Shown here: in pieces, positions 13,161-13,598 of the stretch
How positions within the stretch are numbered: the first letter of the stretch is position 1
Layout: every line of letters starts with the position of its first letter
DNA from: Patescibacteria group bacterium
Lineage (GTDB): Bacteria; Patescibacteriota; Minisyncoccia; Phycocordibacterales; UBA12445
DNA length: 64,000 nucleotides
Assembly (NCBI GenBank): GCA_003504275.1
Contig: DOAO01000009.1
Span: 24,405 to 88,404, forward strand
Reading direction: 5' to 3'
The notes under the pieces: model-generated
Seen by the model: the letters and a program-made list of their open reading frames with translations, nothing else
The model's database searches: none
What the model was told of the DNA's origin: nothing
Translations under genes and position numbers: made by a program

Positions 13161-13598
13161 CTACTTGTAGTAATCTTCTTTAGCTTCTTCTGGTTCTTCA
13201 AGTGTATTGTAGTCGATTGTAATTTCTTCACTAGACTTAATATCGCATAAGGCGTAATAGTTACAGTTACGATGATAGGCATTGGGAGTTTTTGAATGAT
13301 TGAGATACCAGCCAATCTCCATGCGACCAAAATCTTTTGGACAAATAAGCTCATCGCCCATATCAACACAATACTTTCTAAAAAATTTCGGAACATCTTT
13401 TTTGTTCCTTACGAATGAATCCATGGTTGCTTCTGTTTCATAACTAAAGAGTCTAAGATATGTTCCTTTTTTGATATTGTGTGTTGCAAAAACACCTATG
13501 CCACATTTTGATACCTTTAGGACAAAAGAAAACTCCGTTGTCTTGTTTTTCTTTTTTGAAATATTTTCGGTTACTTTTTTTACCGATTTTATTGTCAT
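13161..13598 (-). CDS. Cassette gene 2: SET-domain protein-lysine methyltransferase
   Basis: SET motifs GIGVFA (GxG), NHSKTPN (NHSCxPN) and EEITIDY (ELxxDY). RBS AAAGAGGAGG upstream. Confidence 0.7.
   Translation of the reverse strand: MTIKSVKKVTENISKKKNKTTEFSFVLKVSKCGIGVFATHNIKKGTYLRLFSYETEATMDSFVRNKKDVPKFFRKYCVDMGDELICPKDFGRMEIGWYLNHSKTPNAYHRNCNYYALCDIKSSEEITIDYNTLEEPEEAKEDYYK

Follow-up and report, generated by a model that had tools for sequence, protein, structure and literature searches.

The 64,000-nucleotide stretch of Patescibacteria DNA analyzed here (assembly GCA_003504275.1, contig DOAO01000009.1, positions 24,405 to 88,404; hereafter the window) carries on its minus strand, at 13161–13598, an ATG-initiated coding sequence (CDS) for a SET-domain protein of 145 aa, which is documented by the open reading frame (ORF), a Pfam SET match, an AlphaFold2 fold and an exact public record. 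This record (KKQ82499.1 / HBM45936.1, retrieved by exact-sequence look-up) is filed as "hypothetical protein UT05_C0001G0088" of Parcubacteria group bacterium GW2011_GWF2_38_76. The SET gene is part of an array of three minus-strand units, orf66 (unit 1, 13794–13994), SET and orf142 (unit 3, 12540–12968), which share a repeated intergenic block and are adjoined by a tRNA-Glu(CUC) gene on the same strand (14376–14449; ARAGORN, Rfam tRNA 63.1 bits).

The locus 13161–13598 encodes a minimal SET-domain protein of the predicted lysine methyltransferase class, as motif, profile and model evidence concur in indicating. The original prediction of a minimal SET domain with GIGVFA, NHSKTPN and EEITIDY is borne out: the three motifs are read in the translation at residues 33–38, 100–106 and 124–130, respectively, and the profile check that had been proposed gave a significant, full-length match, with positions 1–105 of the 105 in the Pfam SET model (PF00856) aligned to residues 33–131 at E 2.6e-12 and 47.5 bits, the gathering score of the model being 22.4 bits. 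By the catalytic-core motif definitions of the SET superfamily, the S-adenosylmethionine (SAM)-binding GxG motif is present as G33-I-G35 within GIGVFA, the NH(S)xxPN motif as N100-H101-S102-K-T-P105-N106, where Lys replaces the canonical Cys after NHS, as in vSET, and the ELxF/YDY-type motif with the catalytic tyrosine as E124-E125-I-T-I-D129-Y130. No pre-SET or post-SET cysteine cluster was found in the protein sequence.

An AlphaFold2 model built from 118 homologs reached a mean predicted local distance difference test score (pLDDT) of 74.4, with low confidence at residues 1–20 (pLDDT <50) and 52–58 and block means of ~70–92 elsewhere. When this model was compared with the PDB by Foldseek, all of the best 50 matches were SET-domain lysine methyltransferases, led by vSET of PBCV-1 (3kma_A, E 1.3e-7, TM 0.79 normalized to the target) and followed by a Plasmodium falciparum SET protein, MLL1, NSD1/2/3, ASH1L, SET7/9 and EZH2. 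The overall fold, which is as far as this measure of similarity reaches, is thus like that of SET enzymes. At the sequence level, a single-sequence search of PDB sequences was weak (vSET at E 0.12), and the profile of 118 homologs retrieved Set2-type enzymes and vSET at E ~4e-5 to 7e-5; in the HMM alignments NHSKTPNA falls on NHSKDPNA of vSET and EEITIDY on its EEITISY, ending at chain residue 105.

vSET (A612L), from Paramecium bursaria chlorella virus 1, is a minimal, dimeric SET methyltransferase of H3K27 (PDB 1n3j, 3kma). Both proteins consist of the core alone (~120–130 aa), lack pre-SET and post-SET regions and share the NHSK.PNA and EEIT.xY motifs; they differ in that identity is ~24%, with a weak sequence match (E 0.12 with the single sequence as query and 6.7e-5 with the profile), in that the window protein is bacterial and not viral, and in a near-invariant N-terminal T.EFSF.LK strand and an acidic LEEPEE.KEDYY tail that characterize the family of the window protein.

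This family is strongly conserved, ~130 aa in length and patchily distributed in Patescibacteria. A homology search with the SET protein returned 397 clusters at 90% identity, most of them Patescibacterial; the best 120 of these share 60–77% identity with the query, all carry PF00856 and nearly all measure 128–135 aa, the one exception to the identity range among the clusters listed being a 99% fragment from the same species. Named members among the clusters listed are called "SET domain-containing protein" and come from Candidatus Yanofskybacteria, Parcubacteria group, Paceibacterota and Patescibacteria. In contigs of species-representative genomes (one genome per species) 134 relatives were confirmed: those from Patescibacteria, at ~45–73% identity, belong to Yanofsky-, Morani-, Wildermuth-, Azam-, Yonath-, Doudna- and Peribacteria and to genomes labeled Saccharibacteria, and distant ones (37–48%) occur in Chlamydiae (42–48% in environmental metagenome-assembled genomes, MAGs), Verrucomicrobia, Legionellales, Myxococcales, Planctomycetes, Babeliales and one Woesearchaeota MAG. 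Among 1.84 billion representatives, a profile search gave 1358 proteins at E<=1e-3, 391 at <=1e-10 and 32 at <=1e-30, and these counts indicate a discrete short subfamily and not the broad eukaryotic SET superfamily. Bacterial SET proteins had been described as uncommon, which is fair, but the gene is not novel, its family being already labeled "SET domain-containing protein" in many Patescibacteria MAGs.

Seven residues are invariant among the 118 homologs (G35, P87, F90, H101, S102, E125 and Y130), and the T.EFSF.LK strand at the N-terminus, W97, N100, P105-N106, D129 and Y144 are at least 90% conserved, as is G33 of the GxG motif. The key motif residues being invariant or kept in at least 90% of these sequences, the catalytic-core motifs are under strong purifying selection. 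The T.EFSF.LK strand and the acidic LEEPEE.KEDYY tail are hallmarks of the family. Two SET paralogs no more than 3 kb apart occur in a Planctomycetaceae MAG (contig L088, 2960–3463 and 5860–6369) and in a Saccharibacteria MAG (contig L062, 2221–2613 and 4182–4574). In the literature searched, nothing was found that links SET domains with Patescibacteria or the Candidate Phyla Radiation (CPR).

The SET gene is predicted from its sequence to be a monocistronic unit, in which a sigma-70-like promoter and a Shine-Dalgarno (SD) sequence, both supplied by a locally duplicated intergenic block, precede the CDS and its own terminator. Inspection of the minus strand places the SD sequence AGAGGAGG at 13605–13612, 6 nt ahead of the ATG, and a candidate promoter at 13645–13673 (TTTACA-17 nt-TAGTTT, with TGG abutting the -10 element), within the repeated block; an automated promoter scan reported the copy upstream of orf142 (13042 to 13014, TTTACA-17-TATCTT with TG), the site of SET itself lying under the scan threshold. 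A terminator scan identified an intrinsic hairpin private to SET at 13131–13148, on the same strand (7 pairs, tail TTTATTTTAC), followed by a T tract that is shared between units.

Block alignment defines, again on the minus strand, one full copy of the repeat upstream of SET (13592–13766), in the order T tract, distal block D1, promoter/5' untranslated region block D2, SD and ATGACAA, and a second full copy at 12962–13134, located 3' of SET and 5' of orf142. The two are 92% identical over 176 alignment columns, and their homology extends into the first seven bases of the CDS, ATGACAA. Half-copies mark the ends of the array: the D2 promoter/SD half alone (14006–14083, minus strand, 86%) upstream of orf66, and the D1 half alone (12417–12505, minus strand, 72%; core 91% over 66 nt) after the terminator of orf142. 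Each unit is ordered as D2 (a promoter-like TTTAC(A/T)-17-TA..TT with a preceding TGG, then AGGAGG), CDS, a gene-private terminator stem, and the shared T tract with D1. With these three units, their shared promoter/SD and distal blocks and their private terminators, the cassette array and promoter block of the earlier description are accurate as local anatomy.

The genes on either side of SET in the array are strict ORFans. Among 5.8 billion protein clusters orf66 and orf142 have no homologs but themselves (for orf142, a near-identical copy in the same cluster), neither gave anything above threshold against Pfam, PHROG, PADLOC or NCBIfam, and a single-sequence AlphaFold2 model of orf142 was uninformative (pLDDT 36). 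Both have strong SD sequences and terminators and may be lineage-specific or de novo genes driven by the duplicated promoter. Membership of the array in a defense system was considered and set aside, as its genes have no PADLOC match.

The block has had one concrete effect on the SET protein, as judged from sequence comparison. Members of the family usually start with M-x-N-K-T-T-E-F-S-F, and the position of the family ATG is occupied by AAG, codon 16, in the window gene; the nucleotide alignment with the closest contig (L007) begins 4 nt past the ATG of the latter, which places that ATG opposite codon 16. Given the AAG at the family start codon, translation must begin at the ATG at 13598, 6 nt after the SD sequence and within the repeated block. 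The start codon of SET would accordingly be supplied by the duplicated block, and the protein would gain 15 lysine-rich residues ahead of the usual family start, for which AlphaFold2 predicts disorder. This suggests that a local recombination event joined the block to SET.

The surroundings of the tRNA-Glu gene have clearly been rearranged repeatedly. A 15-nt sequence from the 3' part of the tRNA, GATTCCCTGTAAGGT, has three matches against 0.13 expected: the tRNA itself, an inverted copy at 14311–14325 and an exact direct copy at 14093–14107 (minus strand), between the tRNA and the array. The inverted copy belongs to a near-perfect palindrome of ~90 nt (14306–14398), in which the 3' part of the tRNA pairs with its own reverse complement across the tRNA-Glu terminator hairpin; GATTCCCTG recurs in partial form near 14190 (inverted) and 14225. 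The direct copy is ~270 nt from the tRNA and ahead of the array, with no copy beyond the array in the 64 kb. With its one direct repeat on the tRNA side and none on the far side, the array lacks the bounds of a tRNA-integrated island, and an island of this kind holding SET was rejected. Of the tRNA integration hotspot that had been proposed, the adjoining tRNA-Glu and the copies of its 3' part downstream of the tRNA stand, whereas the direct copy fails to bound the array; the hotspot remains conjecture and is only weakly plausible. Nor is tRNA adjacency a trait of the SET family, since a tRNA or tmRNA gene within 1.6 kb of SET was present at only ~10 of 50 loci, with various and inconsistent tRNA identities.

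Upstream of tRNA-Glu, on the minus strand at 14450–14886, are two tandem units, U1 (14660 to 14450) and U2 (14886 to 14661), each of which opens with the 5' half of tRNA-Glu up to anticodon position 34, is interrupted in the D-loop region by GC-rich hairpins (e.g., CCGCCCG...CGGGCGG) that are striking in a genome of 36% GC, and closes with a 79-nt block, 97% identical between the copies. Both fold far better than shuffled sequences (z -4.8 and -3.5). ARAGORN, with introns allowed, detected no credible tRNA gene in them and Rfam recognized only the true tRNA, so that intron-containing tRNAs were rejected as an explanation; a conserved 23-mer of the units was not found in metagenome contigs. Decayed tandem copies of the tRNA, relics of integration and structured RNAs are all conceivable readings of these units. 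A similar arrangement surrounds tRNA-Pro(CGG) (2853–2926, plus strand), upstream of which a pseudo 5' half extends up to the anticodon with two hairpin insertions (2735–2836), one of them matching the U2 hairpin at 14815–14845 with 94% identity over 32 nt, and downstream of which (2927–2975) an inverted T-arm copy, TTGGGATTTGAA, follows the terminator hairpin, as for tRNA-Glu. The occurrence of the pattern at both tRNA genes of the window suggests a genome-wide feature. In unrelated CPR genomes, 3 of ~28 tRNA genes have a copy of their first 14 nt located 127–137 nt upstream: for a tRNA-Met (contig L039, 3907–4043) the copy is a tandem duplicate of the promoter and part of the tRNA, and for two tRNA-Lys genes (L063, 252–380; L069, 4096–4222) it is a short hairpin that resembles the 5' end. 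Copies of tRNA 5' fragments ahead of the gene may be recurrent in CPR genomes.

On this evidence from motifs, profile, model and gene layout, the window protein is very probably a resident chromosomal, cytoplasmic, stand-alone, core-only, SAM-dependent SET lysine methyltransferase of a Parcubacteria bacterium, encoded as a monocistronic unit. Its residence in the chromosome has to be weighed against the view, implied by the earlier description of the locus as mobile-looking, that SET is a cassette of a gene-capture array, exchanged by recombination in the ~170-nt block beside a tRNA-Glu integration hotspot, which we regard as unlikely. In the ORFs scanned between 70 and 25688 of the window, i.e., within ~10 kb of SET, no integrase, transposase or recombinase domain was detected, and hence no integron IntI with attI; the ORFs flanking the tRNA (66, 145, 142, 184 and 111 aa, and a GT2 glycosyltransferase) include no integrase either. 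The composition of the SET gene is native (GC 0.333 versus 0.361 for the window; codon-adaptation score 0.745, equal to that of DnaB), its GC content and codon score being indistinguishable from those of DnaB, threonyl-tRNA synthetase (ThrRS) and L21 of the window; the two ORFans deviate in opposite directions (GC 0.244 for orf66 and 0.389 for orf142). The exact protein is present on 8 contigs from several assemblies, and the order orf66-SET-orf142 is found in the 3 places listed, with no differing place reported.

What speaks for an exchangeable cassette is the anatomy of the array, in which three tandem units share their boundaries, from the T tract after the private hairpin through ATGACAA, in which the copies flanking SET are 92–98% identical as against 72–86% for the outer half-copies, in which the two other genes are strict ORFans, and which is adjoined by copies of the tRNA-Glu 3' part and pseudo-tRNA units; this arrangement is unique among 81 SET loci. 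The repeated block, in turn, has no attC-like fold (neither strand folds better than shuffled sequence, z -0.96 and -0.25) and, unlike attC, bears a promoter; a core 25-mer of it gave no exact hit in genome, metagenome or viral collections, BLAST revealed no further copy in the window or in an additional ~10 kb flanking it, and none of 80 other SET loci showed comparable similarity between their flanks (window control, 92.8% over 167 nt).

Integron arrays resemble the locus in that small genes, some of them ORFans, stand in tandem with a recurring sequence between them. They differ in that IntI is missing here, the block is no imperfect palindrome and carries a promoter, an SD sequence and a start codon. 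Integron cassettes are typically promoterless and expressed from Pc, whereas here each unit has its own promoter-like site, SD sequence and terminator. An integron-like cassette was rejected for want of IntI and of any hairpin structure in the block. With islands that target tRNA genes the locus has in common the tRNA adjoining the array, the copies of its 3' part downstream and an ORFan-rich neighborhood, but it lacks an integrase, its direct repeat does not bracket the array and the composition of SET is native. Carriage by phages was likewise rejected, as IMG/VR (2.9 million viral contigs) holds only 3 distant SET relatives and no PHROG matches were obtained.

Relatives of the gene are found in ordinary and often operon-like chromosomal contexts, such as aminoacyl-tRNA synthetase genes with recO, IF3-L35-L20, purine-synthesis genes and cell-wall proteins; SET lies within 50 nt of a same-strand neighbor in about a third of the loci, and a large serine recombinase directly upstream of SET occurs at one locus only. 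Between the same pairs of genomes, SET identity is 63–69% and that of RarA/MgsA 69–73%. SET identity thus tracks that of RarA, which fits long-term, constrained vertical descent better than recent transfer, and a recent horizontal acquisition is supported neither by GC content and codon usage nor by the comparison of SET with housekeeping identities in the same genome pairs. The description as mobile-looking consequently finds no support, given the missing recombinase, the unstructured block, the native composition, the absence of repeat flanks at the other loci and these ordinary contexts. The repeat-flanked layout is no evidence of a mobile cassette; the best reading is that a promoter-terminator spacer was duplicated or recombined locally, in a region that is variable and rich in ORFans.

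Several observations nonetheless weigh against a resident methyltransferase gene of this kind, some of them favoring the exchangeable cassette. SET is flanked by direct repeats of ~170 nt, 92% identical, and three assemblies made independently from the same population have contigs (L091, L092 and L093) that end at 12392–12397, the edge of the array. This break falls at a hairpin between a LOG-family gene and the last D1 half-copy, with no long repeat there, and might mark strain-level structural variation; two of the three broken contigs start at 14702, within the 79-nt repeat. In addition, an ENA contig of ~1x coverage (L006) corresponds to window positions 13567–12982 (SET, D1 and D2) at 99.8% identity amid unrelated flanks (1–45 and 632–1011, including a 96-aa ORF without a Pfam match). 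The SET gene on this contig lacks a start codon, and the breakpoints lie in A/T-rich low-complexity sequence, so that a chimeric assembly is no less probable than a genuine variant. The repeats, the assembly breaks and this contig leave room for local rearrangement or mobility. Set against how many Patescibacteria genomes are known, the family also seems to us rare, which would fit an accessory, occasionally transferred gene. Finally, all-against-all ORF clustering over 81 SET loci revealed no conserved neighbor that would hint at a substrate or partner, and no published enzyme activity, assay or substrate for any member of the subfamily was found in the literature.

RarA/MgsA and ABC-type proteins were considered as partners and dismissed, RarA being near SET at only 5–6 of the 81 loci and the ABC-type proteins forming a generic cluster. 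In the window, RarA/MgsA (25752–26903) is 12 kb from SET; the distance is below 6 kb in five other loci (L002, L014, L028, L029 and L030), in one of which (L014) RarA overlaps and directly adjoins the SET gene. This proximity may be a trace of old synteny, with no functional link evident.

By homology with the established mechanism of SET enzymes, SAM would bind at the GxG and NHS elements and the substrate lysine would enter a narrow channel from the opposite face, where Tyr130 of EEITIDY would help to position and deprotonate the lysine epsilon-amine; the methyl group would then pass from SAM to this amine through the channel around Tyr130 and the NHS motif. Tyr144, a conserved C-terminal aromatic residue, may close the channel, as the post-SET region or C-terminal tail does in other enzymes, and the acidic tail LEEPEEAKEDYYK would, speculatively, suit a basic partner. 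It is very improbable that the protein has a SET fold yet no lysine methyltransferase activity, whether as a binding module devoid of catalysis or as an enzyme for substrates other than protein. The lack of the Cys of canonical NHSC and of a post-SET region could be read in this way, as could the fact that the subfamily is known from sequence alone; however, all core motifs (GxG, NHS..PN and EE.T.DY) are present, five of their residues (G35, H101, S102, E125 and Y130) are invariant in 118 sequences, and vSET, the best structural match, is active although it equally lacks a post-SET region and has NHSK.

SET genes are well documented in bacteria and archaea, including free-living species, with >500 genomes by 2014, and the bacterial enzymes characterized so far are mostly secreted nucleomodulins, namely NUE of Chlamydia, RomA/LegAS4 of Legionella, BtSET of Burkholderia and BaSET of Bacillus (PMC3980110; PMC10117894). 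An effector of this type, which would methylate host histones or other host proteins, is one alternative reading, the original prediction having named host-histone effectors and modifiers of bacterial nucleoid proteins as the best-known bacterial SET proteins; CPR bacteria are generally regarded as episymbionts, and distant relatives (37–48%) of the window protein are found in MAGs of Chlamydiae, Legionellales and Babeliales. The only NCBIfam match is likewise to an effector, the SET part of Legionella AnkI/LegAS4 (NF043024, T4SS_AnkI; E 3.5e-6, residues 31–144); the SET core is shared, but the 26 bits are far under the cut-off of 550, the model spans 439 positions with extra domains and describes a Dot/Icm effector, and the window protein is no member. 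Its N-terminus is lysine-rich and hydrophilic, with no signal peptide or hydrophobic segment, no secretion-system genes were found in the ORFs scanned around SET, and the catalytic core stands alone, with no ankyrin, nuclear-localization or other targeting module; NUE, by comparison, is type III-secreted and targets host chromatin. Moreover, conservation like that of housekeeping genes across CPR lineages from very different settings fits an endogenous target better, and the known hosts of CPR organisms are bacteria and archaea, not eukaryotes. A host-histone effector is therefore without support for this CPR bacterium, and we consider the effector interpretation in its wider sense improbable. 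The window protein fits the testable features of the SET family; the features that define secreted effectors, integron cassettes and tRNA islands do not apply to it.

As to the substrate, our best guess, by analogy with two prokaryotic enzymes, is a basic protein of the cell itself that is abundant and either nucleoid-associated or ribosomal. Go1-SET of Methanosarcina mazei is a small stand-alone SET protein acting on the chromatin protein MC1-alpha (PMC3980110), and cpnSET methylates the chlamydial histone-like Hc1 as well as host histones (PMC10117894). Go1-SET, compared by description only, is the favored functional model as a small, stand-alone prokaryotic SET protein, but it belongs to another organism with other candidate substrates, MC1 being archaeal. 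An endogenous target is favored because there is no signal peptide or targeting module, the hosts are bacteria or archaea and conservation is about that of RarA; the family, about as conserved as RarA between genomes, is yet present in a minority of lineages. A more specific proposal, that the protein is a dedicated lysine-methylation writer whose target is an endogenous protein of the nucleoid or of translation, or else a protein of a bacterial or archaeal host, is tentative and rather unlikely. Less likely still than such a writer, the three-unit array could be a recombinase-independent gene-capture scaffold expressing ORFans beside a tRNA hotspot.

The surrounding 25 kb are an ordinary chromosome, with the C-terminal part of DnaE, MgtC, a histidine kinase, ThrRS, DnaB, RecR, L21 and RmuC, as well as a trypsin-like protein, a LOG/SLOG-family protein, a GT2 glycosyltransferase, a ClpB-like AAA+ protein and a dUTPase; between RmuC and ClpB are many small ORFs without family matches. 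The trypsin-like protein (228 aa, 10780–11466, minus strand) matches Pfam Trypsin_2 under the cut-off (E 7e-4) and the C-terminal protease part of PADLOC RT-Protease_XI (E 5.9e-8), with no reverse transcriptase nearby. A second cluster of small genes includes near-identical terminator blocks at 7138–7182 and 7563–7607, 425 nt apart, and two minus-strand ORFs (7183–7434 and 8249–8518) for proteins of 83 and 89 aa that have hydrophobic N-terminal halves and look paralogous, with a common C-terminal (E/D)..EI(I/M).E.YKR motif. Repeated use of promoter and terminator modules seems to be common in this genome.

These results correct the annotation of a "hypothetical protein" to a predicted SET-domain lysine methyltransferase and delineate a well-delimited, conserved subfamily of Patescibacteria, apparently undiscussed in the literature searched, though automatically labeled in sister genomes. 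As a genomic finding the gene is ordinary, its practical value being that of a compact, well-defined candidate for biochemistry; more unusual are the shared promoter/terminator scaffold expressing two ORFans and the pseudo-tRNA units with GC-rich hairpins at both tRNA genes. A core-only SET protein in organisms living on bacteria or archaea points to an endogenous substrate or one from a prokaryotic host, and the nature of this substrate would bear on the role of prokaryotic SET domains before the advent of eukaryotic chromatin. If the protein were indeed a dedicated lysine-methylation writer, it would represent an unstudied chromatin-like or host-directed modification system in CPR organisms.

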